Positions 2,062 through 51,794 of a stretch of 64,000 nucleotides of DNA are shown here, one piece after another. The notes beneath the pieces are model-generated. The model worked only from the letters and a program-made list of their open reading frames with translations, was not told the DNA's origin and did no database searches. Location: contig CAZFLM010000008.1 in assembly GCA_964519955.1 (NCBI GenBank), positions 4,732 through 68,731 on the forward strand. The letters are read 5' to 3'. Within the stretch, counting starts at the first letter, position 1. Each line of letters begins with the position of its first letter. Made by a program: the position numbers and the translations under genes. Source of the DNA: an uncultured Chthonomonadaceae bacterium. GTDB taxonomy: Bacteria; Armatimonadota; Chthonomonadetes; Chthonomonadales; CAJBBX01.

Positions 2062-3729
2062 CTACTCGGCCAGGCCGAGCAACTCGCGCGCGGCGCGGCG
2101 TACGGCCTCGGTCGTCTCGGCGCCGGACAGCATGCGAGCCAGCTCCTCGATCCGCTCATCCTGGCTGAGCGGCGAGACCGATACGGTGGTGCGCTCGCCC
2201 GCGACCTGCTTCTCGATGTAGAGGTGCGTGTCGCCCCGCCCAGCGATCTGCGGCAGGTGCGTGATGCACAGCACCTGGGCGCCGCGCGCCAGAGCGCTCA
2301 GCTTGTCCGCGATGACGCCCGCCGTGCGCCCGCCCACGCCGGTGTCGATCTCGTCGAACACCATCGTCGGCAGCGGGTCGCGCCGGGCCATCGCGCTCTT
2401 GATGGCCAGCATCACGCGCGACAGCTCGCCGCCGGACGCGATCTTGGCCAGCGGGCGCAGCGGCTCGCCGGGGTTCGGCGAGATGAGGAACTCGACCCGG
2501 TCCGCGCCCCGCGCTGTTGGCTCGCAGGGCTCCAGTGACACCTCGAAGCGCGTGCGCGCCATGCCCAGGTCGGCCAGTTCGGCGAGCACGGCCTCCGCGA
2601 ACGCCTGACCCTTCCGTCGCCGCAGCTCGCTCAGCCGCCCCGCCCTGTCCGTGTACTCGGCCTCAACCCGCGCGATCTCGGCGTCCAGCTCTGCCCCGCG
2701 CTCCTCGCTGTGCGTCAGGGCGTTCAGCTTCTCGGTGGTCGCCTGGCCGTAGGCCACCACCTCGTCGAGAGTGTCGCCGTACTTCCGCTTGAGGCTCCGC
2801 AGCATCTCCAGCCGCTCCTCGACCTGCTCCAGCCGCTCGGGGTCCAGTTCCACCGAGTCCGCATAGCGCCGCAGATCGTGGGCGACCTCCTCCGCCTCGT
2901 AGCGCGCGGCGTTCAGGGCCTCCAGGATCGGGCGCACCCGGTCATCGAGGTCGGCGATGTCCTCCAGCGCGCGGGCCGCCTGCGCCAGCGAATCGACGGC
3001 GCCTCCGCCCTCGCCCGATAGCCCGTCGCTTGCCGCTGCGGCGGCCTCGCCGAGCCGCTGGGCGTTCGCTAGGCGCTTGGCGTCCGCCTCCAGCTCCTCG
3101 TCCTCACCGGGTCTGGGGGCTGCCTCGCCGATCTCGTTCACCTGGAAGGAGTAGAGGTCGACGAGGTGCGCACGCTCGCGGGCGTCCCGCGCGAGGTTGT
3201 CGCGCTCCTCCCGCAGGCGGCATGCTACCTCGTAGGTCTCGGCGACCTGCTCGCGGAGCGCCAGCACCTCCGGCCCGCCCCAGCCATCCAGGATGTCGAG
3301 GTGGCGCGGCACGGAGAGGAGCGACTGGTGGTCGTGCTGGCCGTGGAGGTCGACGAGGTCCTCGGCGAGCGCGCGGAGTTGGCCGATCGTAGCGGGGCGT
3401 CCGCCGATGCGAGCGGACGACTTGCCGCCGCCGGCGATCTCCCGCGTGATGAGCAGCTCGCCGTCGTCGCACTCGAAGCCGGCATCCGCCAGCGCGGCCG
3501 CGATGTGGTCGGCGCCTTCGAGATCGAAGACGCCGTCCACGATGGCGCGGTCCGCGCCGCCTCGCACGACCTCGGCGCCGACGCGCCCGCCGAGGATGGC
3601 CGTCAGCGCGTCGATGAGGATCGACTTGCCCGCGCCCGTCTCACCCGTCAACACGTTCAGTCCCGGGCCGAAGGACACATCGAGCCGGTCGATGATCGCG
3701 AAGTTGCGGATGGCAAGGGCACGCAGCAT
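2062..3729 (-). CDS. recN: DNA repair protein RecN
   Basis: MLRALAIRNFAIIDRLDVSFGPGLNVLTGETGAGKSILIDAL Walker A/SMC-like N-terminus, coiled-coil middle, and a C-terminal ASGGELSRVMLAIK signature with VFDEIDTGVGG Walker B. ATG at 3729 chosen; the upstream 75 codons of the track ORF look non-coding. Confidence 0.93.
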   Translation of the reverse strand: MLRALAIRNFAIIDRLDVSFGPGLNVLTGETGAGKSILIDALTAILGGRVGAEVVRGGADRAIVDGVFDLEGADHIAAALADAGFECDDGELLITREIAGGGKSSARIGGRPATIGQLRALAEDLVDLHGQHDHQSLLSVPRHLDILDGWGGPEVLALREQVAETYEVACRLREERDNLARDARERAHLVDLYSFQVNEIGEAAPRPGEDEELEADAKRLANAQRLGEAAAAASDGLSGEGGGAVDSLAQAARALEDIADLDDRVRPILEALNAARYEAEEVAHDLRRYADSVELDPERLEQVEERLEMLRSLKRKYGDTLDEVVAYGQATTEKLNALTHSEERGAELDAEIARVEAEYTDRAGRLSELRRRKGQAFAEAVLAELADLGMARTRFEVSLEPCEPTARGADRVEFLISPNPGEPLRPLAKIASGGELSRVMLAIKSAMARRDPLPTMVFDEIDTGVGGRTAGVIADKLSALARGAQVLCITHLPQIAGRGDTHLYIEKQVAGERTTVSVSPLSQDERIEELARMLSGAETTEAVRRAARELLGLAE

Positions 3730-13803: not shown

Positions 13804-14562
13804 CTAACTGTTCGGCCCTACCTCGCCGTCCGCCGCGCGCAGCAGGTTCGCCTCGCCATCCTCCGCGGGCCGCAGCAGCACCTCCGCGCCGGGCTCCGCA
13901 GGACGCAGCAGCGTTGCCCCCGCAGCCTCCGTCGCCATGCGCTCCTCGATGGCGGCGATGGCTTCCTCGGCGGCGCGGCGGATATCGTCGACCCAGCCCT
14001 CATCGTTCCCGGCGATGCCGGCGAGCGCAGGCAGGTCACTCCGGTCGCCGACATGCGCCAGTGCGGTGAGCGCGGCCATCACCAGCTCGGCGGGCGCGTC
14101 GTCCTGCCCGGCGGCCGACGGGAGGAGCCTCTGGATGGGCGTGGCGTTGCGCCGGCACAGCAGGGGAGCGTCCTCGGGGCGCACGCGCTGCAGGAGATCG
14201 GCCAGCAGCGGCGCGATCTCGGCGGTGTAGGGCCCCCAGCCGAAGCCGACGCCGCGCTGGTTCATCAGAAGGGGGATAGCCCGCACGTCGCCTGCCCGCG
14301 CGAGTGCGAGGATGGCCTCGCGGTAGGCCTGGCGGTGCGCCTTCAGGCGGCGGATGGCCGTGCGGCCGATGAACCACCCCGCCAAGGCGCCGAGGACAGC
14401 GAAGACGGCGGCCTTGAGCAGCGAGCGGCCGTCCAGAATCGGGGTGACACCCGCCACGATGGCCAGGGTGACGACCGTCGTGATGGCCGAAACCGAGCGC
14501 TGATAGGCAGTCTGCCCGCGCACCACGTCAGCTCTGAGTTGCTCCAGTACCTCCTCGCTCAC
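13804..14562 (-). CDS. LLRP-tail paralog 1: 2-TM, HEAT-like repeat protein with a triple LLRP C-terminal tail
   Basis: GTG at 14562 (VSEEVLEQL...) aligns with MSEEP of paralog 3 and has the same upstream GAGGTG. Two hydrophobic helices. ALTALAHVGDRSDLPALAGIAG is a HEAT-like repeat. Tail: ATLLRPAEPGAEVLLRPAEDGEANLLRAA. Confidence 0.8.
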   Translation of the reverse strand: MSEEVLEQLRADVVRGQTAYQRSVSAITTVVTLAIVAGVTPILDGRSLLKAAVFAVLGALAGWFIGRTAIRRLKAHRQAYREAILALARAGDVRAIPLLMNQRGVGFGWGPYTAEIAPLLADLLQRVRPEDAPLLCRRNATPIQRLLPSAAGQDDAPAELVMAALTALAHVGDRSDLPALAGIAGNDEGWVDDIRRAAEEAIAAIEERMATEAAGATLLRPAEPGAEVLLRPAEDGEANLLRAADGEVGPNS

Positions 14563-14627
14563 CCGCGCACCTCGTTCCGCTGTTGCTCTTCGCCCGAGGC
14601 CGCACGCAGCGCCGAGGCGCCGGCGGC
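14559..14627 (-). pseudogene. Relic of the C-terminus of a further LLRP-tail paralog (truncated by the mazEF cassette)
   Basis: Translates AAGASALRAASGEEQQRNEVRG*, matching the tail EAYLLRAAESEEEQRNEVRG* of the copy ending at 16867. Its TGA overlaps the GTG of paralog 1 (GTGA), as at the intact junctions. Confidence 0.6.
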
Positions 14628-14633
14628 TTACCA

Positions 14634-15020
14634 CTAGGATGGGTTGCCTTCACCGCCTGGGGCAGGCGGGCTGGTCAGACCTAGTGTGTGCGCCAACGCC
14701 TCGTCCACGGTGCTCATCGCCGGCCAGTCGCCGATCAACCTGTCGACCTCGCTGTCGAGGATGGTCGCGATGTTGTCGGTCATGATGACGGAGTCGGTGA
14801 GTAGCCCGCTCTGTTGTCCGGCCGATGAGCGCAGCGCCACCGTCACGCGGCTTCGGTGTCCTGCCCGCGCCATGTTGCTGGTGATCATGGCGACCACCGA
14901 TTGCGGAAGTCCCGTTCCCAGGTCGTCTGCGTGCACGACGAGTGCTGGCCGGCGCTTGGCGGTTCTCAGGTCGCTGTTCGGGAAGAGGACCAGGACGATC
15001 TCGCCCCGCCTACAGGGCAT
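14634..15020 (-). CDS. mazF: Type II toxin, MazF/PemK family endoribonuclease
   Basis: MPCRRGEIVLVLFPNSDLRTAKRRPALVV...VVAMITSN is the typical PemK signature. Its start overlaps the antitoxin stop by 11 nt. Confidence 0.85.
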   Translation of the reverse strand: MPCRRGEIVLVLFPNSDLRTAKRRPALVVHADDLGTGLPQSVVAMITSNMARAGHRSRVTVALRSSAGQQSGLLTDSVIMTDNIATILDSEVDRLIGDWPAMSTVDEALAHTLGLTSPPAPGGEGNPS

Positions 15021-15252
15021 CGTAGACGTCCATGTCCGGGCGGCTCCAGTCACCCGCGAATGCGCTCAGGCGGCCTCGCAGGTCTGCGGCCTGTTCCGGT
15101 CCGATCCCTCGCGCGGCGAGGTCGGTCTCTGCGGCGGAGTCGGCGGTGTCCAGGAGCTGAAGCAGGAACTCGGCGGGCCCGATGCCGCACCTCGTGGCAG
15201 CTCGCCGCAGGCGGGCCTCTTGCTGCGGTGACAGCTCCAGACGCAGTGTCAT
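15010..15252 (-). CDS. Cognate antitoxin (MazE-like position)
   Basis: 81 aa starting MTLRLELSPQQEARLRRAA. A perfect AGGAGG RBS lies 7 nt upstream of the ATG at 15252. It sits immediately upstream of, and overlaps, the toxin gene. Confidence 0.7.
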   Translation of the reverse strand: MTLRLELSPQQEARLRRAATRCGIGPAEFLLQLLDTADSAAETDLAARGIGPEQAADLRGRLSAFAGDWSRPDMDVYDAL

Positions 15253-15273
15253 TGTAGCTACCTCCTGTATTGC

Positions 15274-15302
15274 AGTATACGGCCCGCTCGTGCCCATGTC
15301 AA
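15274..15302 (-). promoter_or_regulatory. Consensus sigma70 promoter of the TA cassette (TTGACA-17-TATACT on the minus strand)
   Basis: On the minus strand: TTGACA (15302-15297), a 17-nt spacer, TATACT (15279-15274), then AGGAGG and the ATG at 15252. Confidence 0.6.
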
Positions 15303-32000: not shown

Positions 32001-32090
32001 CCCCGATAAAGGCAAACCTGTCGCAAGGCAGGGGCGCAAAGCCGACGGGCCTCCCGCCGCACTGGGAGGAAGCCGGGCTGCCGAAAGGGC
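32001..32090 (+). promoter_or_regulatory. c-di-GMP-I (GEMM-I) riboswitch aptamer, copy 1
   Basis: AAAGGCAAACC-UGUC-GCAA-GGCA-GGGGCGCAAAGCC...GGGAGGAAGCCGGGCUGCCGAAAGG. Compare the V. cholerae Vc2 pattern GGCAAACC-stem-GAAA-stem-GGGACGCAAAGCC...AGCGGGGUUACCGAUGG. Confidence 0.75.
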
Positions 32091-32194
32091 GCAGCCGATG
32101 CAGGGATGCTCTCCTCATCGTCTCGCGGGGTCGGGACCCCAAGAGGGGTCGCACGTTCCGCCGCGTTGCGGCGTCGCGATCGAAGACCCTTCGC

Positions 32195-32306
32195 AATCGA
32201 CAAAGGCAAACCGGCCGAGAGGCCGGGACGCAAAGCCATGGACCCTAGCTCGCCGCGCCTGCCGCACTCCGGCGCCGCGGGACGGGCAGCCAGGTTGCCG
32301 AAAGCG
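32195..32306 (+). promoter_or_regulatory. c-di-GMP-I (GEMM-I) riboswitch aptamer, copy 2
   Basis: CAAAGGCAAACC-GGCC-GAGA-GGCC-GGGACGCAAAGCC...GGCAGCCAGGUUGCCGAAAGC. It ends ~25 nt before the GAGGGAGAG RBS and the ATG at 32331. Confidence 0.8.
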
Positions 32307-32330
32307 TACGATTACGAGGGAGAGTGCTCA

Positions 32331-34094
32331 ATGAGTATGAACGGTGGCCGTTTCGCCGCCGGTTGCGCGCGTGACATGCGTCGGGCCTGCCTGGCCGCGC
32401 TGGCGCTCGCGTCCTTACTCGCCTGGCCTGCTGCCTCACAGGCGAGCGATAGCGCCGCACGTGGCCCCGCCGCGTTCGGCAAATGCGATACGTTGCTCCG
32501 CGTCCAGATGGAGCGCAACTCCGCCAAGGGATGGACGTCCGCCGTCCTGTGGATCGACGGCCAGCTCACCGCGGAGCGCCGTGCCAAGTTCGGCGCGCTG
32601 CACGTCGATGTCTACCGCAACCTGCCCGTCATCTCGTCGGTGGCCGCCCGCATTCCGAACCGGAACCTGCGTGCGGTGGCCGACCTATCGTTTGTCAAGC
32701 GCCTGTCGTCCGACGCGACTGTCCTCAAGAACGACGAGTACACCGTGGAGGCCACCGGCGCAGACGTCGCCTTCTCCAAGAACCACCTGACTGGCAAGGG
32801 CATCACGGTCGCCGTGCTCGACAGCGGCCTCCGCGAGTCCTACGATCTGACCGAGTCGCTGTCGCGGCGCCGCGTGCTCGCCAGGGTCTCGTTCGTGCCA
32901 ACCGACCGCAGCCCGGACGACCAGTGCGGGCACGGCACGCACGTTGCCGGTATCATCGGCGGCAACGGCAAGTCGTCCACCGGCCCCTGGTTCACCCGCA
33001 CGTTCTACGGCGTTGCCCGCCGCGCCAGCCTCGTCAGCGTTCGCGTGCTGGACGAGTACGGTCAGGGCAACGTCAGTGCGGTTCTGGCCGGCATCCAGTG
33101 GTGCATCGACAACCGCTCCCGCTATGGAATCCGCGTGCTGAACCTGTCGCTCGGCCATCCGGTCGGCGAGAGCTTCACCACCGACCCGCTCTGCCGGGCC
33201 GCCGAGGCCGCCTGGAAGTCCGGCATCGTCGTGGTGTGTGCCGCGGGCAACATGGGGCGCTCGATGTATGAGCAGGACCCGGCCCTGGACAATGAGGGCT
33301 ATGGGACTGCCTACGGCTCCATCCAGTCGCCGGGCAACGACCCGTACGTCATCACCGTCGGCGCGATGAAGCGCATGGACGGGGTCCGGGCCAATGACCG
33401 GATCGCTACCTACTCCAGCCGCGGCCCGAGCCGTCTCGACTTCGTCGTGAAGCCGGACATCGTGGCCCCCGGCAACCGCGTCATCTCGCTGGACGTGGAC
33501 AACGGCTACCTGGAGCGGACTTGCGCGTCCACCAACATGGTGCCGAAGTCCTACTACATGGTCCGCGCCAGCAACGACGCGTCCGATAGCTACTTCTATC
33601 TCTCCGGCACGTCCATGGCCGCGCCGGTGGTGTCTGGGGCCGCCGCCCTGATGCTCGAGGCGGATCCCACGCTCTCGCCGGACACGGTCAAGGCGCGGCT
33701 GATGATCGCAGCCGACAAGTGGCTCGCGCCGAACGGACTGGCCGATGTTTGCACCTATGGTGCGGGCTATCTCAACATCCCGGCCGCCCTGGCCTGCAGG
33801 TACAGGGCCACCCAGGCTTCGCTCAGCCCGATGCTGGTGCGAGACGATGCCGGCAGCGTGTTCCTGTGCGCCTACGGCGACGTCACCGGGACGCGGGCCA
33901 TCTGGGGGGGAGGAAACACCTCAGTAGTCGACGCGACCCGGGCGATCTGGGGTCCCGCGACTGCCGAGAACACGCCGGCCTTGACGAACAGCTACCAGCT
34001 CTACGGGCTCAACGTGTGGTTCGATGGTTGGGTCTGGGGCGAGGGGTATACAGCCGCCGATCTGTCGATGACGACGATCATCGGGGAGGGGTAA
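32331..34094 (+). CDS. Secreted subtilisin-like serine protease (peptidase S8)
   Basis: Signal peptide ...ALASLLAWPAASQA. Catalytic triad motifs VAVLDSGL (Asp), HGTHVAGIIGG (His) and GTSMAAPVVSGAAALM (Ser). Confidence 0.92.
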   Translation: MSMNGGRFAAGCARDMRRACLAALALASLLAWPAASQASDSAARGPAAFGKCDTLLRVQMERNSAKGWTSAVLWIDGQLTAERRAKFGALHVDVYRNLPVISSVAARIPNRNLRAVADLSFVKRLSSDATVLKNDEYTVEATGADVAFSKNHLTGKGITVAVLDSGLRESYDLTESLSRRRVLARVSFVPTDRSPDDQCGHGTHVAGIIGGNGKSSTGPWFTRTFYGVARRASLVSVRVLDEYGQGNVSAVLAGIQWCIDNRSRYGIRVLNLSLGHPVGESFTTDPLCRAAEAAWKSGIVVVCAAGNMGRSMYEQDPALDNEGYGTAYGSIQSPGNDPYVITVGAMKRMDGVRANDRIATYSSRGPSRLDFVVKPDIVAPGNRVISLDVDNGYLERTCASTNMVPKSYYMVRASNDASDSYFYLSGTSMAAPVVSGAAALMLEADPTLSPDTVKARLMIAADKWLAPNGLADVCTYGAGYLNIPAALACRYRATQASLSPMLVRDDAGSVFLCAYGDVTGTRAIWGGGNTSVVDATRAIWGPATAENTPALTNSYQLYGLNVWFDGWVWGEGYTAADLSMTTIIGEG

Positions 34095-37247: not shown

Positions 37248-37946
37248 CTACTGCTGCTGTCGCGGATCGAAGCGGCCGTCGTAGACCGCGCTTGCCGCGT
37301 CCTGGAACCAGAGCTGCGTCCATCGGCCCCACTTCGCATGCCCGTCGAGGTACACGCAGTTCATCCCGCCCTGGTGGCGCTGCGAGGCGAGCCAAAGGGG
37401 CAGTCCCTCCGAATCGAAGAACGTGCCCATGTAGTTGCAGAACGACGGCCTCAGCGGATCGGCGGTGTTCCAGCAGTACGGCGGGAAGTGGTCCGGCCCG
37501 CGGTTGGCGGCGTTCTCCGCCAGGTAGATCACGGAGGCCGGCGCGCCTGTCTGAGCGAGGCTGGTGTACGGCGTCGGCGCGTTCGGCGTGAACCAGGCGT
37601 TCACCGCATAGGACGAGAGCCGGCCCGACGTCCACGTGGTGCTGGTGTCGTCCGGGCAGCGCAGGAGTGCCTGGCTCTTGATGTAGGGCTGGAGCGTCGA
37701 GGTCCAGGTGTTCGCCAGCGACGGATAGCTGACGAGCGGCAGCATCTCGTCGTAGTCGGTGACGTACTGGGCCATCGCCAAGCCGATCTGGCGGTTGTTG
37801 GAGAGGCAGGCGACCGCGCGGGCCTTGCCTCGGGCCTGGGCGAACACCGGGAACAGGATGGCCGCGAGGATGGCGATAATGGCTATAACAACTAGGAGCT
37901 CGATGAGCGTGAATGCTGTGCCGCTTCGTCGGTGCTGACGGTTCAC
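37248..37946 (-). CDS. Prepilin-type N-terminal cleavage/methylation domain protein (DUF1559 / H-X9-DG-like pseudopilin)
   Basis: [31 protein letters not shown] is a class III signal. The C-terminal [16 protein letters not shown] is an H-X9-DG motif. AGGAG then GTG at 37946. Confidence 0.85.
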
Positions 37947-38131: not shown

Positions 38132-39493
38132 ATGGCGGAGCAGCGGGGCGACGTGATGGTGGGCAGTGGCGAGGCGGCGGGCAGCGAGAAGCCGGCGTGG
38201 CTGCGCGAGCGGCTCGAGTGGTTCATGGACCAGCGCTTCGGCGTGTTCCTCCACTGGGGGCCGTACTGCCAGTGGGACTGCTGCGAGTCCTGGCCGCTCG
38301 TCCCCGAGGACACCTGGGCGCGCAATCCCAAATCGCGGTGCTGGAGCGAGCGTGGGATGGACCTGGAGCGCTTCCAGCGGGACTACTGGGCGCTCAACCG
38401 CACGTTCGACCCGGTGGACTTCGACCCGGACGCGTGGGCGGAGGTGGCTCAGGCGGCGGGCATGCGCTACGTCACGTTCACCACGAAGCACCACGACGGG
38501 TTCTGCATGTTCGACACGCGCACCACCGACTACCGCGTCACCGCGCCGGACTGCCCGTTCCACGCGCACCCGCGCGCCAACATCGCCCGCGAGGTGTTCG
38601 ATGCGTTCCGCCGCCAGGGGCTCGCGGTGAGCTGCTACTTCTCGAAGTCCGACTGGCACTCGCCGCACTACTGGTCGCCGCGCTGGCCGGCGCTCACCCG
38701 CAACCCGAACTACGACACCGCGGAGTACTCCGACATCTGGGAGGGCTTCGTGCACTTCGTCCACGCGCAGGTCGAGGAGCTGATGACGGGCTACGGCCCC
38801 ATCGACGTGCTGTGGCTCGACGGCGGCCAGGTGCGGGCGGACAACAAGCAGGACATCCGCATGGCCGAGATGGCCGCTATGGCCCGCAGCCACCAGCCCG
38901 GCCTCATCATGGCGGACCGCACCGTGGGCGGCGACTACGAGGACTTCATCACGCCGGAGCACACCATCCCCGATGCGCCGCTCGACACGCCGTGGGAGTC
39001 CTGCCTCACGCTCGGGACCTCGTGGAAGTACGTCGAGGGCGAGGTCTACCGCCCCGCGCGCGAGGTCATCCGCATGCTTGCCGAGATCGCGTCGAAGGGT
39101 GGCAACCTGCTGCTCGGCTTCGGTCCGGACCCGCTGGGCCGCTTCCCAGCCGGCGCGGTGGAGCGGCTGCGCGAGGTCGGAGCGTGGATGGACGTGAACG
39201 GCGAGGCGGTCTACGGCACGCGGCCCGTTGCGCCCTACGGCTCCGGCGACGTGCGCTTCACCAGCAAGGGCCGCACGACCTACGCCATCGTGCTCGACGC
39301 GCCGGAGCCCGACCGCCAGGCTCGCCGCCTGCGGATCGAGGGCCTGCGCCCGGCAGAAGGAGCGCCCGTGCACCTGCTGGGCGTCGACGAGCCGCTGGCG
39401 TGGCAGGCGGAGGGGCAGGGGTTGTCCGTGGCGCTGCCGGAGCGCGCCATCGCCGAGCCCATCGCCTGGGTGGTCCGCTTCGAGCGGGCATGA
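38132..39493 (+). CDS. Alpha-L-fucosidase (GH29)
   Basis: RFGVFLHWGPY...AGMRYVTFTTKHHDGFCMFDT...DVLWLDGG are typical GH29 motifs. The start is uncertain (ATG at 38132 or the downstream Met). Confidence 0.85.
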   Translation: MAEQRGDVMVGSGEAAGSEKPAWLRERLEWFMDQRFGVFLHWGPYCQWDCCESWPLVPEDTWARNPKSRCWSERGMDLERFQRDYWALNRTFDPVDFDPDAWAEVAQAAGMRYVTFTTKHHDGFCMFDTRTTDYRVTAPDCPFHAHPRANIAREVFDAFRRQGLAVSCYFSKSDWHSPHYWSPRWPALTRNPNYDTAEYSDIWEGFVHFVHAQVEELMTGYGPIDVLWLDGGQVRADNKQDIRMAEMAAMARSHQPGLIMADRTVGGDYEDFITPEHTIPDAPLDTPWESCLTLGTSWKYVEGEVYRPAREVIRMLAEIASKGGNLLLGFGPDPLGRFPAGAVERLREVGAWMDVNGEAVYGTRPVAPYGSGDVRFTSKGRTTYAIVLDAPEPDRQARRLRIEGLRPAEGAPVHLLGVDEPLAWQAEGQGLSVALPERAIAEPIAWVVRFERA

Positions 39494-39499
39494 CGCCAT

Positions 39500-39705
39500 C
39501 GCACGAACCCGTGGGGCGCGCCCTCCGCGGCGCGCCGGGTTCTGTGCCATGGTCCCCGCACCAACCCGTGGGGCGCGCCCTCCGCGGCGCGTCGGGCCCG
39601 CCCGCCATCGCTCCCGCACGAACCCGTGGGGCGCGCCCTCCGCGGCGCGCCGGGTCTGTGCCATTGTTCCCGCACGAACCCGTGGGGCGCGCCCTCCGCG
39701 GCGCG
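39500..39705. repeat. Four tandem ~57-bp repeats, each with a GC hairpin (core CGCACGAACCCGTGGGGCGCGCCCTCCGCGGCGCG)
   Basis: Cores at 39500, 39557, 39615 and 39671 (periods 57/58/56). The linkers alternate between two types. Each unit carries GGCGCGCC-CTCCGC-GGCGCGCC. The array fills the convergent intergenic gap 39494-39714. Confidence 0.85.
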
Positions 39706-39714
39706 TCGGGCCCC

Positions 39715-41076
<1,362 letters not shown>

Positions 41077-41252
41077 GGCGTTCCCCTCGCCGGTCGGGAT
41101 GGGACCATTATCGGTTGATCGTGAGCAGGACTGAGACTCCGCAGGAGAACATGGCGTCGGTAACGAATCCTGTGCTGTACAGGTGGGGGCTCTCGTTGCC
41201 CCGGTCGTCCAGGGCAGGTCGGCCGGACGCACGGCCGCCGGAGGGAGATAAC

Positions 41253-41486
41253 ATGCGTGCCGAACGTGTGCTGTACGCCGTTCTGGATGAGGACCTCGAG
41301 GACCTGTTGAAGTCGTTGGGGCAACTGGAACGCCTCCGGCGCGGAGAGGTGACCTGCGCGGTATGTAGCGCGCCCATGTCAGTTCGGAACCTCCACGCTA
41401 TAACGGTACTGCCCGATGGCGAACTCAGGTGGCTCTGTCACGACTCGGAGTGCGCGGTCGTCGGGCACGCCTGCCAGGAGAGCTAA
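41253..41486 (+). CDS. Small Cys4 zinc-ribbon-like protein (77 aa), unknown function
   Basis: GGAGGGAG RBS. EVTCAVCSAPM...WLCHDSECAVVGHAC has a CxxC...CxxxxC pattern. Its stop is separated by 1 nt from the next ATG. Lower GC than the flanks. Confidence 0.6.
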   Translation: MRAERVLYAVLDEDLEDLLKSLGQLERLRRGEVTCAVCSAPMSVRNLHAITVLPDGELRWLCHDSECAVVGHACQES

Positions 41487-41487
41487 G

Positions 41488-44073
41488 ATGCCCCAGCTAC
41501 CAGTCATCTACTACGTCGCCGGCATCCTGGGTGTGTCCATCATGGCGATGGCCCTCATCTTCCTCGGCATGCTGCTGCTTGCGGCCTACCCCAGCGCCAA
41601 GGTGCTAGTTGGTGACTTCTTCCGACTTTTCGGAGTGCTCGGAAAGTGGTTCCGGAGGAAGGCCGTCGAAGCTGAGGTGGAGGGTGTCGTCAACTCGTTC
41701 GCCCGGCACCTCAACTCGGATGTTCAGGCCGACATACTGCCGGACTGCCGCGTGCAGTGGGTAAGCCGAGAGAATCACGAGGCTGTCCTTCAGCCCGGAT
41801 GCACGCTGGTCCGCGTGAGCTTCACCGGACTTGACCGCGACCTGGACACCTACAACGCCGCGTGTCAGTACGTGAGGACCAGCCTTCTCCCGGACACCAA
41901 GCCGTTCCTGCGAGCAGCCACTTCTGGTGCCCTCGACTTGCTGATGGTCCGGATACTGCTTACGTACGGGAAGCGCGCCGCCCTAAGGGTGTTCAATCAA
42001 CGGGCTCGCGACCATGATGCAGCCACGTTGGACGCCTACGAGCGTCTCTCGGAGAGTGATCGCCGCGGTCTGTTCAGGCACATGCTGCTCAGCGAGCTGA
42101 GTGCCTACGGTGACCTTGTTGCCGACCACACGCCAGGACCAGCCCTTGAGGAGGAGACCGAGCGGTTCCTCTCCTGGTTCAATGATCTGGTGATGCGCGA
42201 ATGGCGGGAGAGGATCACGCTCCACTTCCGGAGTGAGCACTTCAACGTCGGGATCATTCTGGTGGCCGATGGTGAGGTCTATGGTAAGCACGGGATCAGG
42301 CCCTATGTCAGCAGAGCGCATCAGTACGCGACAAGCGGGTGTAGCAGCCTCTACCTGCTGGCCCGTGGCGGCAGGAAGAGCCACGTGGCTGACGAGGTGG
42401 TGCGGGACCTGTGCAGGAACGCTGGCTTCTCGGTGAGCAGGCGGTCCTCGGCGGTCGTTACTGGCACGCGGGACGACGAGGTAGTCGTCACGTGTATAGC
42501 GATTAGGGCCGATGCCACTGCGGTGCAGCTTGACGCATGGTGTCACTTGGCACAGGACCATGCGCGCGGCCAGCGGGCCCAGGCGCTGGTTGAGGCGGTC
42601 TGGCGAGACGGGGCGTGCGTAGATGTCTACGGCCTGAAGACCGAGATCCCCATCGACCAGCTGTCCGGCGTTGCGCTCCACGACGCCGCCCGCTTCATCG
42701 AGCGTGACTCTACCCTCCTCGTCGATGTTCTGGAGTGCGATCCAGCCAACGGCGTGCTGCGCCTCAGCAACGCAGGTACCGAGACTGACCCCAAGCAGCT
42801 GATCGACAAGCTCCATGGGTATGCCCAGGAGGAGCAGCTAGCGGTTGTGCTTCGCTACACGGGCTACGGAGCCTACGAGAGCGGCCTAGTCGTCTCACTG
42901 GTGCTTGAGGAGCGGCCGATCGAAGGCTTCGTGCCTCGCTCCGGCGCTACGTATAGCCGCTTCGCACCGCTCTCGACCAAGTACCCCGTTGGCACGTCGA
43001 TCCACGTGGTGTTGGAGCGCTATGATCCCGAACGGGGAACGTACAGATGCAGAGTTGCAGGCCTGAGCGACCCTTGGGAAGGTGTCGCACGCTACGCGGA
43101 GGGGCAGCGTGTGCACGCCGTGGCCCAGGAGATAACCGAGTACAGGGTGGTCTGTGAGCTCGTCGAGGGCCTGGAGGGAGTGATCCATGTCGACGAGCTC
43201 TCGTGGGACGGGCGCGAGCACAACGATGCCCGCATCCGCGAGGTCAGCGTGGGAGACACCATTGAGGCCGTCGTCGTCAACCACGATCACTCTCGGCGAC
43301 AGATCCAGCTCAGCGTGAAGAGGCTGGCGACCAGCCCTGTTGAGGCATATTGCGCTCGCAGCGCGGGTACCCGGGTGCTCGGGGAGGTGACGGCCGTGCT
43401 CGGGCGTCGTGCCGAAGTAGCGTTGCTGCCAGACCGCGTACGCGGGGTCTTGCCGATAGGCGAGGTGTCCTGGCACTATTGCTCGGGTGTCGATCGACTA
43501 CTTGAGGCAGGCCGACAGATCCAGGTCCTCGTACGGGAGTACGACGGCGACCACGACTGCGCCGTAGTCAGCATGAAGAGACTCGCTGATAATGCGTTTG
43601 AGGAGTTCTTGCGGCAGCATGAGGCCGGTTCGCAGGTGGTGGCTACAGTGGTTGGGCACTGGGAGGACCGCGTCCTGGCTGAGGTGCGGTTTGGCGATCG
43701 GGTGGTCCAGTCCTACATTCACCGTTCAGAAGTATCATCAGTTGTCTGGGTTGACGCTGAGACGATCGGTGCTGTGCTGCCTGTCGGCTCGGCCTGGCAC
43801 TGCGTCGTGAAGCCGCCCGATCGGCGGGCCGGAGTGGTAGAACTCAGCAGGCGTCGATACCTCGACATTAGCGTCGACAGAGCAGAATATGGGGCAGTGC
43901 ACTTGGTGCGTGCGCATCGCGGACGGCAGGGCAACTGGTGTGGCTACTCGGATACGATCGAAGGGGTGCTCGTCGAGACTGGCCGCAAGGGTGTCCTGGC
44001 GGGCTCGGAGTACGAGGTGGTCGTGGCTCGGCGCGGCGGCTCGGGCGGGCGACCCGAACTCGCCATAGCCTAG
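41488..44073 (+). CDS. Membrane-anchored protein: unknown ~330-aa N-terminal region + about six S1 (OB-fold) RNA-binding repeats
   Basis: AGGAG RBS. N-terminal hydrophobic VIYYVAGILGVSIMAMALIFLGMLLLAAY. S1-like units include GQRVHAVAQEITEYRVVCELVEGLEGVIHVDELSW...GDTIEAVVVNHDHSRRQIQLSVKRL and GTRVLGEVTAVLGRRAEVALLPD-VRGVLPIGEVSW...IQVLVREYDGDHDCAVVSMKRL. Confidence 0.75.
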   Translation: MPQLPVIYYVAGILGVSIMAMALIFLGMLLLAAYPSAKVLVGDFFRLFGVLGKWFRRKAVEAEVEGVVNSFARHLNSDVQADILPDCRVQWVSRENHEAVLQPGCTLVRVSFTGLDRDLDTYNAACQYVRTSLLPDTKPFLRAATSGALDLLMVRILLTYGKRAALRVFNQRARDHDAATLDAYERLSESDRRGLFRHMLLSELSAYGDLVADHTPGPALEEETERFLSWFNDLVMREWRERITLHFRSEHFNVGIILVADGEVYGKHGIRPYVSRAHQYATSGCSSLYLLARGGRKSHVADEVVRDLCRNAGFSVSRRSSAVVTGTRDDEVVVTCIAIRADATAVQLDAWCHLAQDHARGQRAQALVEAVWRDGACVDVYGLKTEIPIDQLSGVALHDAARFIERDSTLLVDVLECDPANGVLRLSNAGTETDPKQLIDKLHGYAQEEQLAVVLRYTGYGAYESGLVVSLVLEERPIEGFVPRSGATYSRFAPLSTKYPVGTSIHVVLERYDPERGTYRCRVAGLSDPWEGVARYAEGQRVHAVAQEITEYRVVCELVEGLEGVIHVDELSWDGREHNDARIREVSVGDTIEAVVVNHDHSRRQIQLSVKRLATSPVEAYCARSAGTRVLGEVTAVLGRRAEVALLPDRVRGVLPIGEVSWHYCSGVDRLLEAGRQIQVLVREYDGDHDCAVVSMKRLADNAFEEFLRQHEAGSQVVATVVGHWEDRVLAEVRFGDRVVQSYIHRSEVSSVVWVDAETIGAVLPVGSAWHCVVKPPDRRAGVVELSRRRYLDISVDRAEYGAVHLVRAHRGRQGNWCGYSDTIEGVLVETGRKGVLAGSEYEVVVARRGGSGGRPELAIA

Positions 44074-44132: not shown

Positions 44133-44966
44133 TCAGTCAGCCAGCGCCAGCAGGTCCTTCAGCACACGCGGTACGGCGGCGGCCGCGTCTTCCTCTGCCT
44201 CGTACTCCAGGTGCAGGTAGCCGCGGTAGCCGGCCTCGCGCAGGATGCCCACGATGCGGGGCAGGTCGGCGGCCTCGCGCACGCCGGGGCGGTGCATCTC
44301 CGTCTTCACGTGGGTGGTCACCGTGTAGGGGGCGAGCCGCGCCAGGTCGGCGTACGGGTCGGGAGTGTGGAAGTTGCCCGTGTCCATGTTGACGCCGAAC
44401 CACTCGGAATCGACCTGGCGCACGATCTCAAGCATGCCCTCGGGCAGGGCCACCACGCCGCCGTGGTTCTCCAGCGCGAGCACCAGGCCGCGCTTGCCGG
44501 CCTCCGGGCACAGCTCCCGCAGGCAGTCCACGACCCAGCCGCGCGCGGTGCTCTCGTCCACACCCTCCGGCGCCGGCCCGGCGAACACGCGGATGTACCG
44601 TCCGCCCAGCTCCGGCGTCAGCTCGATCCACCTGCGGACCAGAGCCAACTGCTTCTCGCGGTCCGGCCCCGGCGGCAGCGCGAACGTGTTGCCCACTGCT
44701 GTGCCGGTGATGTCGAGCCCCAGCATCCAGGCGCGCCGGGCGAGGCGGTGCAGGGAGCCGGGCGTGATCGGCTCGGGGAAGTAGTACGAGGTCAACTCGA
44801 CGCCGTGGATGCCGATCTCGGCGGCACGATCGAGGAAGCCCTCCATCGCCATCGCCGGCGCCAGCTTGCCGGTCAGGTAGTCGCGGTACGAATAGGCGCA
44901 GCACCCCACGCGGAGGCACGACCCTCCCACACGCTGCGGCCTCGCCGGCTCAGACGACGGAGACAT
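44133..44966 (-). CDS. Sugar phosphate isomerase/epimerase (xylose-isomerase-like TIM barrel)
   Basis: [10 protein letters not shown]...[16 protein letters not shown]...LALENHGG...[10 protein letters not shown] is the typical AP_endonuc_2/TIM pattern. Confidence 0.75.
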
Positions 44967-45010
44967 GGCCACCTCCCTCGCATCTCAACGTAACGGGCGG
45001 GCACCCCGCC

Positions 45011-47984: not shown

Positions 47985-48160
47985 CGGGTAGTGGGACGCG
48001 CGACGGCGGGGGCGGAGCAGTGCTCGTGCGCGTATAGCTGGAGTGAGGGCCGGTGGTCGCCCGCCGGACCGGGCTGGCTCGCGCGTTCGGACACGCTCTC
48101 GCAGGTGCAGGACTCGCAGACCTGAGCACGGCGGGTGCGCCTGCTCATAATGAGAATGCA

Positions 48161-49318
48161 ATGAGAAGCGATCCGGATGTCGTCTACATCGGCTTCATCC
48201 TCGGACACGGGGGCGATGCGCTGCAGTTGCTCGACCTCGCGATCGGCGTGTCTGCCCGCGGCGGACGCGTCCGTATCGTCGTGCCCGATCTGCCAACCAC
48301 CGTCAAGTTCGGCGAACGCTGCCGCGCGCACAACCTGCAGGTGGTTCGCACCCCGCTGATCGATGTGGACATGCACCACTCGCGCCAGAGCCTGTTCTCG
48401 CTGCTGCGCGTGTTCCATGCGCATCGCGCTCCGATCGTGCACATCCACACGGGCGACGTGTGCCTGCCGCGCCTGGCCATCCTGGCGATGGACATCCTGC
48501 GGCTCCCGCGGGTCATCGTCACGTCGCACAGCCCGTACGACACGCTGGATCCCGCTGGACGCCGCGCCCGGTTCTGGGCCTCGGCGGCCCGTCGCCGCAT
48601 CCATGTGGTCGTCTCCCCTTCGGTCCACGGACGCGCGACGCAGTTGAGCTACGGCGTGCCCGAGGATCGCGCGGCCACGATCCACAACGGCGTCGACACT
48701 GGCCGCTACGGCTCCGGGAGCGCGGAGGCGGCCCGAGCAGCCCTCGGCGTGGGGCCCGAGGCGCGGCTGGTGGTGTTCACCTCGCGCATCGACGCCCAGA
48801 AGCGCCCGCTGGAGGCTGTCCAGGCGTTCGCGCGGATCGCGGGCGAGTTCCCGGACGCGCTGCTTGTGTTCGTCGGGAGCGGCGACCACGACGCAGCCGT
48901 ATTGGACGAGGCGCAGCGCCTCGGAGTCGATCGGCGCGTGCGGATGGTGGGCTACCAGAGCAACGTGCCGGACTGGCTCGCCGCGGCGTCGGTGTGGATC
49001 CTCCCGACGGAGAGCGAGAACTTCAGCCTTGCCGTGCTGGAAGCGTTCGCGGCCGGATGCCCCATCCTCAGCACGCTCTGCCCGGGCAACGACGAGATCC
49101 TGCGGAATGGCGAGAACTCGGTCGCGGTCCCGGTTGGCGACGTGGACGGCCTGACGGATGGCCTTCGACGGTTGCTGGGCGACGAAACGCTCCGCACCAG
49201 GTTGGGGGCAGCCGCGCGTGCCGAGTCGCGGAACTTTGCGGTCGATGTCGCTGTCGAGAAGTATATTGCGAAGTACCGGGAGATGGCCGAGGCGCCATGG
49301 ATGGGTGCCCGCCCGTAG
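48161..49318 (+). CDS. Glycosyltransferase family 4
   Basis: GHGGDALQLLDL at the N-terminus. ILPTESENFSLAVLEAFAAGCPIL is the E-x7-E motif region. Confidence 0.8.
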   Translation: MRSDPDVVYIGFILGHGGDALQLLDLAIGVSARGGRVRIVVPDLPTTVKFGERCRAHNLQVVRTPLIDVDMHHSRQSLFSLLRVFHAHRAPIVHIHTGDVCLPRLAILAMDILRLPRVIVTSHSPYDTLDPAGRRARFWASAARRRIHVVVSPSVHGRATQLSYGVPEDRAATIHNGVDTGRYGSGSAEAARAALGVGPEARLVVFTSRIDAQKRPLEAVQAFARIAGEFPDALLVFVGSGDHDAAVLDEAQRLGVDRRVRMVGYQSNVPDWLAAASVWILPTESENFSLAVLEAFAAGCPILSTLCPGNDEILRNGENSVAVPVGDVDGLTDGLRRLLGDETLRTRLGAAARAESRNFAVDVAVEKYIAKYREMAEAPWMGARP

Positions 49319-49844: not shown

Positions 49845-50879
49845 GTGACGGATTCCCCGAAGATCGGGATAATCGGATGGTATGGGCACGGCAACGACGG
49901 CGATGAGCGCATCCTGTACTGCCTGCGCCAGTGTCTAGCGGGCGCCCGGCTCGTGGTGCTCTCCGGCCTCCACGAGGTGGCTTCGCGGCGCGCCGAGCTC
50001 GAGGCGTGCGACTTCGTCCTCTTCGGCGGCGGCGGCCTCGTCCTCAGGCGGTTCGGGGTGTACGCGTCGGCCATTGCGGATCTGCGTGTCCGTTTCGGGT
50101 GCGTCGGCATTGGCGTCAGTGCCATACACCGGGATAACCGCCAGTTGGCGCAGGTCTTGCTGGCCAAGTCCGAGTTCGTCCTGGTGCGTGACGCTCGTAG
50201 CTGGGATCTGCTTGGGCGAGATCCCAAGATCGTGGTTGGGCCGGATCTGACCTTCCTGTGCCCGTTCCCAGTCGCCGAGCCACAAGCCAGCGACGACACC
50301 TGTGGTGTCAACCTGCGTCCCTGGCCGTTCTGGTTGCTTTCCTGTAACTCGCCTGCCGATCGGGCGATGGCGCGCCTGAACCGGCGCGCGAGGTGGCTGG
50401 CGCGCGCGTATCCGCTTCGCAGGTGGGAGCCGGAGCCACCGGTGCGCGTGCTTCGCGAGTTCTTTGAGCATCTTGTTCCGGTCGCGATGTATGCTGAGGC
50501 GGGCCAGCAGAGCGATGCCGAAGTGCTCGGCCAGTACGTGGGCGAACCGGATCACCGCGAGGCATCGGAACTGATCGGCCGGCAGCCGTATCTGTGCGGC
50601 ATGCGGCTGCACTCGCTCATCTTCGCGTGTCAGACCGGAACGCCGTTCGTGTCTCTGAGCTACCAACCGAAGAACGCGGTGTTCTGTTCGTCGATCGGTA
50701 TGGAGCGCTACTCCGTGCCGCTCGGCGATCTCAAGGCGCTGCGGCATGCCGTTCAGGATCTGCGGGCATCGCGCGATGCCGTCCGGCAGCGGCTCATCGA
50801 GGCGCGCGACAGGAACGTTGCTGAGATAACGCATATCATGGGCGACATCCGTGCGCGCGTGATGGGTGGGGAGGCCTAA
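49845..50879 (+). CDS. Polysaccharide pyruvyl transferase family protein
   Basis: KIGIIGWYGHGNDGDERIL...FVLFGGGGLV...MRLHSLIFACQTGTPFVSLSYQPK is a CsaB/WcaK-like pattern. GTG start after GAGGAGG. Confidence 0.75.
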   Translation: MTDSPKIGIIGWYGHGNDGDERILYCLRQCLAGARLVVLSGLHEVASRRAELEACDFVLFGGGGLVLRRFGVYASAIADLRVRFGCVGIGVSAIHRDNRQLAQVLLAKSEFVLVRDARSWDLLGRDPKIVVGPDLTFLCPFPVAEPQASDDTCGVNLRPWPFWLLSCNSPADRAMARLNRRARWLARAYPLRRWEPEPPVRVLREFFEHLVPVAMYAEAGQQSDAEVLGQYVGEPDHREASELIGRQPYLCGMRLHSLIFACQTGTPFVSLSYQPKNAVFCSSIGMERYSVPLGDLKALRHAVQDLRASRDAVRQRLIEARDRNVAEITHIMGDIRARVMGGEA

Positions 50880-50885
50880 CCGGAC

Positions 50886-51794
50886 ATGCTGGTGTCGATC
50901 GTGCTGCCGACGCACAATGGCTCCCGCTATCTCGCCGAGTCCGTCCGTAGCTGCGTTGGCCAGACGTTCACCGACTGGGAGTTGATCATCGTCGACGACT
51001 GCTCCGACGATGGCACGCCGCAGGTCATCGCAGAACTGGAAGCGGCCGACAGCCGCATTCGGTCGATTAGGAACGACCCCAACCGGCGGTTGCCGGCCTC
51101 TCTGAACATCGGTTTCGCTGCCGCGCGAGGCGATCTTCTGACCTGGACATCGGACGACAACCGGTACCGCCCAGATGCCCTGGCCCGGATGGTTGACCAC
51201 TTGTTGCAGCACCCCGATGTGGGACTGGTGTACGCCGACTGGGATATCATCGACGGCGAGGGAGTGAACCGAGGGCAGGGCTGGCTGGGCGATGTCGGCG
51301 AGATGGGCTACCGAAACGTGGTCGGCGCCTGCTTCCTCTATCGCCGGTGCGTGCTGGAGCAGGTCGGCAACTACGCGGAGGACCTCTACCTGGCGGAGGA
51401 CTACGACTACTGGCTCAGGATACTCTCCAAGTACCCGATCGCGAGAATCCGCCGCTGTCTTTACGACTACCGCGTGCACTCGTCGTCCCTCACGACCACT
51501 CAGTCGGAGGGCGTTCGGGCGGCGACGGCGGCTACTCTGAGGCGCCACATCGAGGCGCTTGCCAAGACCGCACCTCATGTCGCGGCGCAGGGCCACATGC
51601 ACCTCGCACGGGATGCGCGCGACGGAGGCGACGAGCACACGATGCGCGCCCACGCGATCTCGGCATTCCGGCTGGCGCCACTCGTGCCGCTGAACTGCCA
51701 CAGGGGCGTTCTGGCCGATCTCATGCTCGGATGCCGGGCTGCTGCGAGGCTGCGCAAGGCGGTGGGCTGCGCGCGGTCGGGCCGATCCGGATGA
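50886..51794 (+). CDS. Glycosyltransferase family 2
   Basis: VSIVLPTHNGSRYLAESVRSCVGQTFTDWELIIVDDCSDDGT...WTSDDN (DxD-type motif). Confidence 0.85.
   Translation: MLVSIVLPTHNGSRYLAESVRSCVGQTFTDWELIIVDDCSDDGTPQVIAELEAADSRIRSIRNDPNRRLPASLNIGFAAARGDLLTWTSDDNRYRPDALARMVDHLLQHPDVGLVYADWDIIDGEGVNRGQGWLGDVGEMGYRNVVGACFLYRRCVLEQVGNYAEDLYLAEDYDYWLRILSKYPIARIRRCLYDYRVHSSSLTTTQSEGVRAATAATLRRHIEALAKTAPHVAAQGHMHLARDARDGGDEHTMRAHAISAFRLAPLVPLNCHRGVLADLMLGCRAAARLRKAVGCARSGRSG

Follow-up and report, generated by a model that had tools for sequence, protein, structure and literature searches.

A candidate phage-exclusion cassette pairing a small four-cysteine protein with a predicted membrane-anchored S1-repeat protein in an uncultured Chthonomonadaceae bacterium

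What is the role of a plus-strand gene pair of unusual composition, encoding a small four-cysteine (Cys4) protein and a large protein with S1 repeats, in the chromosome of an uncultured Chthonomonadaceae bacterium? We analyzed this pair, hereafter the cassette (positions 41253 to 44073), within a window of 64,000 nucleotides, the whole stretch of DNA considered here (GenBank assembly GCA_964519955.1, contig CAZFLM010000008.1, positions 4,732 to 68,731 of the forward strand); coordinates are those of the window unless another locus is named. With moderate confidence, we read the cassette as a horizontally transferred, self-contained two-gene accessory module that most likely serves phage exclusion or abortive infection. 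Its composition, a break in synteny, the patchy distribution of its homologues across phyla, their presence on mobile DNA and their positions in or beside restriction/BREX loci and in a lysogeny module together place it among mobile accessory genes. We propose the defence role as a candidate one because homologues sit at restriction/BREX, prophage and mobile-element positions, which is circumstantial evidence.

The original prediction, made from the DNA letters, had described open reading frames of 77 and 861 amino acids (aa) separated by a single nucleotide, lying on the plus strand between two minus-strand metabolic genes. Both reading frames are present as claimed, with a 1-nt spacer at the junction (TAA-g-ATG), and the flanking genes are indeed metabolic and on the minus strand (a lyase and a xylose-isomerase-like protein). 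Gene 2 is translationally coupled to gene 1. Shine-Dalgarno-like sequences lie ~5 nt upstream of each start codon, GGAGGGAG at 41240-41247 for gene 1 and AGGAGAG at 41476-41482 for gene 2. An alternative start of gene 2 at the ATG at 41416 (885 aa) is unlikely: we preferred the 861-aa start because it has a ribosome-binding site and the N-termini of homologues align there. The parts of the cassette are as follows, structure models being from AlphaFold2 (AF2).

41253-41486, plus strand: gene 1, 77 aa, cytosolic; N-terminal helical segment (AVLDEDLEDLL motif), then a Cys4 zinc-ribbon-like motif
41488-44073, plus strand: gene 2, 861 aa, predicted membrane-anchored multi-domain RNA-binding protein
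41497-41583, plus strand: gene 2 transmembrane anchor, residues 4-32 (AF2 helix and hydropathy), predicted N-out/C-in
41584-42222, plus strand: gene 2 helical region with a small three-stranded sheet, residues 33-245 (AF2); conserved W91, N170, G194 (D..GLF) and E203
42223-42522, plus strand: gene 2 Alba-like beta-alpha-beta-alpha-beta-beta domain, residues 246-345 (Foldseek, family profile)
42523-43848, plus strand: gene 2 array of five tandem S1 (OB-fold) repeats, residues 346-787 (Pfam, TIGR00717, bS1 structures in the PDB, hhalign)
43849-44070, plus strand: gene 2 C-terminal segment, residues 788-861, a fold without assignment, conserved in all ~850-aa homologues (alignment A3)

The two protein families

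The N-terminal 351 residues of gene 2 had no match in Pfam, NCBIfam, PADLOC or PHROGs, and a word-indexed search of 5.8 billion proteins with residues 1-351 returned nothing. An exhaustive phmmer search with the same residues against 1.84 billion cluster representatives yielded a total of 674 clusters at E<=1e-3, including 335 at <=1e-10 and 42 at <=1e-30; a profile search with the family alignment (A1) was dominated by S1 proteins and added little. We counted architectures among the best 150 of the 674 clusters and Pfam domains among 87 shorter members. About 45 of the 150 are ~850 aa long and share the architecture of gene 2, with an N-domain identity of 26-43% (alignment A3), most others consist of the N-domain alone (340-380 aa) and about two dozen measure 440-800 aa. 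Fusions among the 87 shorter members comprise S1 domains (9 members), NusA-type KH domains (9 members) and a C2H2 zinc finger (1 member), and nothing else recurs, so every fusion partner is a nucleic-acid-binding module. Most family members carry no S1 domain. All 20 clusters that we looked up hold 1-3 sequences, which come from metagenomes or metagenome-assembled genomes (MAGs) of unrelated lineages.

We modelled the N-domain with AF2 using a 126-sequence alignment (pLDDT 94.6, pTM 0.89). The model comprises a helix at residues 4-32, more helices up to residue 78, a sheet at 86-110, a helical bundle at 117-235 and a beta-alpha-beta-alpha-beta-beta unit at 253-341. Using Foldseek against the PDB, this last unit matched Alba/Sso10b/Ssh10b structures (E-value 7e-4 to 2e-2, target TM-score 0.65-0.81), with Rpp20/25 and SpoVS as lower-ranked matches; the family profile searched against PDB sequences matched T. 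brucei ALBA1 at an E-value of 0.063, and Pfam Alba matched 2 of the 87 family members weakly (best E-value 9e-4). The window protein itself had no match to Pfam Alba (PF01918) at the gathering threshold, and residues 33-245 had neither a Foldseek match in the PDB nor a profile match to PDB sequences. The most conserved motifs of the family lie within the Alba-like domain (a KVGVILVA-like strand, G..PY..RA and Y.L.RG), the first of them being too variable for degenerate DNA patterns, and the near-invariant positions of the N-domain are W91, G194, E203, L245, G269, Y273 and Y289. A HEPN reading of the N-domain was discarded, as its Rx5H string is not conserved in the alignment. The original prediction had left ~330 aa of this region unassigned to any family. 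That no known family matches, housekeeping families included, stands; the region is nonetheless conserved as a module, with an Alba-like domain at its end, and defines a separate family.

The hydrophobic anchor proposed at the N-terminus of gene 2 is supported by hydropathy (19-residue Kyte-Doolittle maximum of 2.68), by the AF2 helix and by the basic cluster that directly follows it (KWFRRK; six lysines or arginines against one aspartate or glutamate), and 116 of 126 family members have a hydrophobic segment at the N-terminus. We predict an N-out/C-in topology because basic residues follow the helix (positive-inside rule) and S1 and KH domains are cytosolic.

The S1 array matched Pfam S1 (E-value 9.7e-21) and bS1 structures in the PDB (6e-35), and residues 346-787 aligned to the TIGR00717 model of rpsA in one colinear stretch (5e-39, model positions 86-514 of 516). 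About six repeats had been proposed; profile-profile comparison supports five, at residues 346-437, 438-530, 531-615, 616-702 and 703-787, which are mutually homologous (hhalign on segments of the family alignment, probability 89-99%), and the last 74 residues are not demonstrably S1 (hhalign probability 12%). No counterpart of bS1 domain 1 was found, the TIGR00717 alignment beginning at model position 86. With 134.2 bits against this model, far below its curated cut-off of 577, gene 2 does not encode ribosomal protein S1. Three homologues are labelled "ribosomal protein S1" by JGI, a database name that is wrong for such proteins.

The zinc-ribbon-like CxxC...Cx4C motif that had been noted in gene 1 is present (C35-x2-C38 and C62-x4-C67). 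All four cysteines are invariant in 14 homologues, as are D12 and L19. In the AF2 model of the protein (pLDDT 78), short helices precede a small zinc-binding beta-hairpin unit, which leads into a C-terminal helix; the model has no significant fold match in the PDB, and the sequence of the protein had no match in Pfam, PADLOC, PHROGs or NCBIfam. A full-text literature search turned up no paper describing the N-domain family. Both protein families appear to be undescribed, and so does the linkage of a transmembrane anchor to a helical and an Alba-like domain (no Pfam, NCBIfam, PADLOC v2 or PHROGs model). Irrespective of function, the analysis thus defines two protein families and one new domain association.

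Genomic contexts of the homologues

We then inspected the neighborhoods of homologues of gene 2. All 11 members whose neighborhoods we examined, among them 344-350-aa stand-alone forms and one KH fusion, are directly preceded by a Cys4 gene, at distances of -8 to +9 nt. These partner genes encode 70-96 aa and share a DEDL-type helix and the four invariant cysteines. No third gene is conserved: the neighbors beyond the pair share no similarity, which makes this a two-gene unit. The core that is conserved consists of the Cys4 protein and the anchored helical/Alba-like domain, the S1 array being an optional accessory arm.

Three contexts involve recognized defence genes. In one locus (L081), the pair is located inside a type I restriction-modification (R-M) operon, in the order hsdR, small gene, large gene, hsdM, a gene of the DUF1016 nuclease family and hsdS. 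The DUF1016/YhcG gene (PD-(D/E)xK-type; positions 14089-15288 of that locus) lies between hsdM and hsdS, and as it comes in addition to the pair, this operon holds two separate inserted accessory units. In a Clostridiales MAG (L009/L010), the pair is ~4 kb from BREX genes (BrxL, PglZ, BrxC) with transposase fragments in between, and elsewhere (L078) a PglX-like methyltransferase gene precedes the pair with one gene between them.

Other homologues are carried by phages and mobile elements. In one such context (L082-L084), the pair directly follows a tyrosine integrase gene, with a CI-type repressor gene two genes downstream, among small phage-like genes in what resembles a prophage. The interval between integrase and repressor is the usual site of lysogen-expressed exclusion genes in temperate phages. 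The temperate phage Marinitoga camini virus 1 (MCV1; L008) carries the pair as UF08_10 and UF08_11, between replication genes (helicase, SSB) and the terminase gene (packaging). A 346-aa Siphoviridae metagenomic protein from BFVD superimposes on the whole N-domain (TM-score 0.83, E-value 2.6e-20). In a further locus (L003), the pair adjoins a serine recombinase gene in an element that also encodes a cytosine methylase, MobC, a relaxase and a coupling protein (T4CP). The KH-fused member is found on a plasmid-like contig with ParE/MazE, RepA and ArdC genes (L080). On this contig, the gene call at positions 2842-3465 merges the Cys4 protein with an upstream frame (207 aa), the homologous part being the C-terminal ~83 residues from MLNKRW; automatic calls can therefore hide the partner gene.

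Composition, synteny and surroundings of the cassette

The window copy is flanked as follows.

39715-41076, minus strand: beta-eliminating lyase gene, start inferred from the N-terminus MREIIEPFRIK
41077-41252, no strand: divergent intergenic region between the lyase gene and the cassette, presumed to hold the cassette promoter
44133-44972, minus strand: gene for a xylose-isomerase-like TIM-barrel protein, beyond which lie a DAHP synthase gene and then a hisC-like class I/II aminotransferase gene

The original prediction had estimated by eye a lower GC content and a different codon usage (including CTA and ATA) for the cassette, and windowed GC, GC at third codon positions (GC3) and codon counts all differ from those of its neighbors. 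Windowed GC is 0.61-0.65 over the cassette and 0.67-0.72 in its flanks. Both cassette genes have a GC3 of 0.76, the lowest value among 33 probable genes of the window (mean 0.88, standard deviation 0.046); the four genes next to them reach 0.92-0.97. At about -2.6 standard deviations, the anomaly is real but moderate. Codons ending in A or T make up 24.1% in the cassette against 7.9% in the comparison set, with CTA at 6.4 against 0.2 and ATA at 7.4 against 0.8 per 1000 codons; AGA/AGG, GTT and TGT are also strongly over-represented in the cassette.

The DAHP synthase beside the cassette shares 66-79% identity with its counterparts in Chthonomonadales MAGs (Armatimonadota). The gene order hisC, DAHP synthase, isomerase is kept in 8 Chthonomonadales genomes, and similarity to the window ends at the end of the isomerase gene. 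The cassette was found at the syntenic site in 0 of 32 Chthonomonadales loci and the lyase gene is likewise absent there; this comparison covers distant relatives at the syntenic site and speaks of absence at the site, not from the lineage. We found no close relatives of the large protein in 185,579 species genomes, JGI metagenomes or viral contigs, the peptide-pattern scans used for the species genomes and JGI metagenomes being able to detect close relatives only. The large protein has no entry in the contig index. The small protein recurs in identical form only on short Logan contigs (three, from sequencing runs SRR10083292-4), where its neighbor and context are the same. The suggestion that the pair is a horizontally acquired accessory module thus gains support from its composition, the synteny breakpoint and the patchy distribution of its homologues, and the pair does not behave as a syntenic housekeeping locus of the lineage, being absent at the site in the 32 loci and having rare homologues that span phyla and include a phage.

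A scan of the upstream region for the sigma-70 consensus gave no promoter match, and no target-site duplication, inverted repeats or terminator were found in the flanks of the cassette. A 12-nt exact repeat at 41212 and 44259 falls within a neighboring gene and is probably due to chance.

The window holds a second region of lowered GC3 (0.79-0.83), at 49845-51794 on the plus strand, with genes for a polysaccharide pyruvyl transferase and a glycosyltransferase of family 2. It adjoins a GT4 glycosyltransferase gene (48053-49318), and the whole looks like a variable surface-polysaccharide locus. Between the convergent fucosidase and lyase genes, four tandem GC-rich repeats of ~57 nt (39481-39713) cause a local GC peak of 0.77. 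They are 71-94% identical to the reference copy, have palindromic GGCGCGCC/CCGCGG cores and may be a REP-like (repetitive extragenic palindromic) or terminator-type element. Elsewhere in the window, two tandem c-di-GMP-I-GGC riboswitch aptamers (RF03167; 66 and 65 bits) at 32002-32086 and 32196-32303 on the plus strand precede a 662-aa plus-strand reading frame (32106-34094) or extend over its start, and a minus-strand gene (37248-37946) encodes a protein with a prepilin-type N-terminal methylation motif and a DUF1559 domain.

Candidate role, alternatives and comparison with known systems

We infer RNA binding in vivo, a role for the small protein and an anti-phage phenotype, which could fit together as follows. 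The large protein would sit on the cytoplasmic face of the membrane through its single N-terminal helix, the remainder consisting of predicted nucleic-acid-binding modules: a helical domain packed on the Alba-like domain, followed by five S1 repeats that lack the ribosome-docking domain 1 of bS1. In the uninfected cell, the zinc-ribbon partner would hold the large protein inert or serve as the sensor of the trigger. Upon infection, the large protein would capture RNA at the membrane, either phage transcripts or the leaders of cellular mRNAs, and this capture would block the phage gene-expression programme or lead to a collapse of host translation or of the membrane.

A bolder version of this proposal, which is speculative and which we consider improbable, is that the pair founds a new class of phage exclusion. 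Its non-enzymatic effector would be a membrane-tethered decoy of bS1, devoid of domain 1 and built on an Alba-containing core, and capture of phage or host mRNA leaders, possibly also of RNA-phage genomes or S1-dependent phage enzymes, would be licensed by the zinc-ribbon protein and starve ribosomes of templates. S1, KH and zinc-finger domains would then be interchangeable RNA-capture arms.

Should the defence role hold, the pair would be a new two-gene anti-phage system of which no part is found in PADLOC v2, Pfam or PHROGs and whose only recognizable activity is RNA binding at the membrane. Its stand-alone, S1, KH and zinc-finger forms would offer natural variants for dissecting how RNA capture leads to exclusion.

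Several observations weigh against the defence role. The window copy has metabolic neighbors only, its context and those of three homologues (L001, L005 and L077) are uninformative, and recognized defence genes adjoin only 3 of ~11 independent contexts. Using tblastn, we detected a homologue in 1 of 50,697 phage genomes (MCV1) and none in the 72,556 plasmids of PLSDB. Neither protein matches any of 5,027 PADLOC models (PADLOC-DB v2, E<=1), and a search of 87 family members against PADLOC gave only scattered single matches at chance level. As the original prediction had it, no nuclease or other effector motif is recognizable: no effector or catalytic motif is conserved in the family alignment, and conserved positions other than E65, N76, N170, E203 and R237 look structural (W, G, Y, L, F, P). 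The last such points concern AbiP and PdpSau, discussed at the end of this section.

The alternative that survives best, although we consider it unlikely, is an addiction module of the toxin-antitoxin (TA) kind that stabilizes mobile elements, in which the anchored RNA-binding protein would poison the cell unless held in check by its labile antidote, the small zinc-ribbon protein, with no dedicated anti-phage role. The tight operon of a small and a larger gene, overlapping or abutting (1-nt spacer here, -8 to +9 nt in homologues), is that of type II TA modules, a plasmid-like contig, an integrative element and prophages carry homologues, and TA modules are also found embedded in R-M loci. However, no similarity to a known toxin or antitoxin, in fold or in family, is seen in either protein, the small one has no recognizable DNA-binding autoregulatory domain, and the window copy is chromosomal, with no mobile-element gene nearby. 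A TA role would not preclude one in abortive infection.

A doubtful alternative is a post-transcriptional regulator or RNA chaperone of benefit to phages and mobile elements, which would localize or protect transcripts at the membrane or modulate lysogeny, the window copy being domesticated or left over. All recognizable modules of the family (S1, KH, Alba-like) being RNA-binding, the lack of an effector domain and the location of the pair between the replication and packaging modules of a bona fide temperate phage are all consistent with it. A position within a type I R-M operon or next to BREX genes, however, is hard to explain for a factor that benefits phages, the interval between integrase and repressor usually holds exclusion genes, as said above, and a single one of the 50,697 phage genomes carries the pair.

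A housekeeping paralogue of bS1, or a membrane-bound scaffold for RNA processing or a degradosome, is suggested by five S1 repeats colinear with most of bS1 and by the JGI name of homologues but is effectively excluded by the low TIGR00717 score, the replacement of bS1 domain 1 by an anchor and a novel domain, absence at the site in related Chthonomonadales, a sporadic distribution across phyla in small clusters only, atypical codon usage and the predominance of family members without S1.

Under the reading of phage exclusion or abortive infection, the cassette compares with known systems as follows. The likeness to bS1 (rpsA) lies in the five S1/OB repeats colinear with TIGR00717, whereas gene 2 differs by its anchor, a 310-residue novel module and a sporadic distribution shaped by horizontal transfer. 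With the Alba/Sso10b superfamily, which includes Rpp20/Rpp25 and SpoVS, residues ~246-345 share a predicted topology, but in gene 2 this domain forms part of a larger bacterial protein with a membrane anchor and packs against a helical domain without match. In type II TA modules, the resemblance stops at the operon, no toxin fold or antitoxin DNA-binding domain being recognized in either cassette protein. Cassette homologues occupy the positions of accessory genes in type I R-M and BREX loci and of lysogen-expressed morons, the superinfection-exclusion or Abi genes that temperate phages carry between integrase and repressor; such genes form a positional class, not a protein family.

The closest parallels are lactococcal AbiP (grouped as AbiC/P) and staphylococcal PdpSau. 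In AbiP, one N-terminal transmembrane helix is joined to a cytosolic domain, which binds RNA ~ten-fold better than single-stranded DNA; activity requires both parts, and the trigger is a major tail protein of a phage (PMC13064643, PMC12184496). A prophage encodes PdpSau, a membrane-anchored protein that aborts Kayvirus infection (PMC10127798). Like gene 2, as judged for the latter by sequence and fold prediction, each combines a single N-terminal transmembrane anchor with a cytosolic nucleic-acid-binding part. None of the three has a recognizable enzymatic effector, and all occur on plasmids or prophages (in the case of gene 2, its family homologues). PdpSau (ORF016 of phage 53) lies between the lysis genes and the integrase gene, and one cassette homologue (L082) is likewise beside an integrase gene. 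On the other side, AbiP and PdpSau each rely on a single gene, whose product measures ~230-280 aa and has an OB-like domain, whereas the cassette has a two-gene core with a helical and an Alba-like domain and optional S1, KH or zinc-finger modules; the family profile has no detectable homology to PdpSau (hhalign probability 0.1%) and there is no match to Pfam Abi_C or the PADLOC AbiC models. Because of this lack of detectable homology, the parallel with AbiP, which we judged by its description only, is an analogy: the resemblance is one of architecture and likely mode of action, not of family membership. If the cassette does act in defence, the poorly understood mode of AbiP and PdpSau, which involves no nuclease, signalling enzyme or obvious pore former, would extend to an unrelated modular family.

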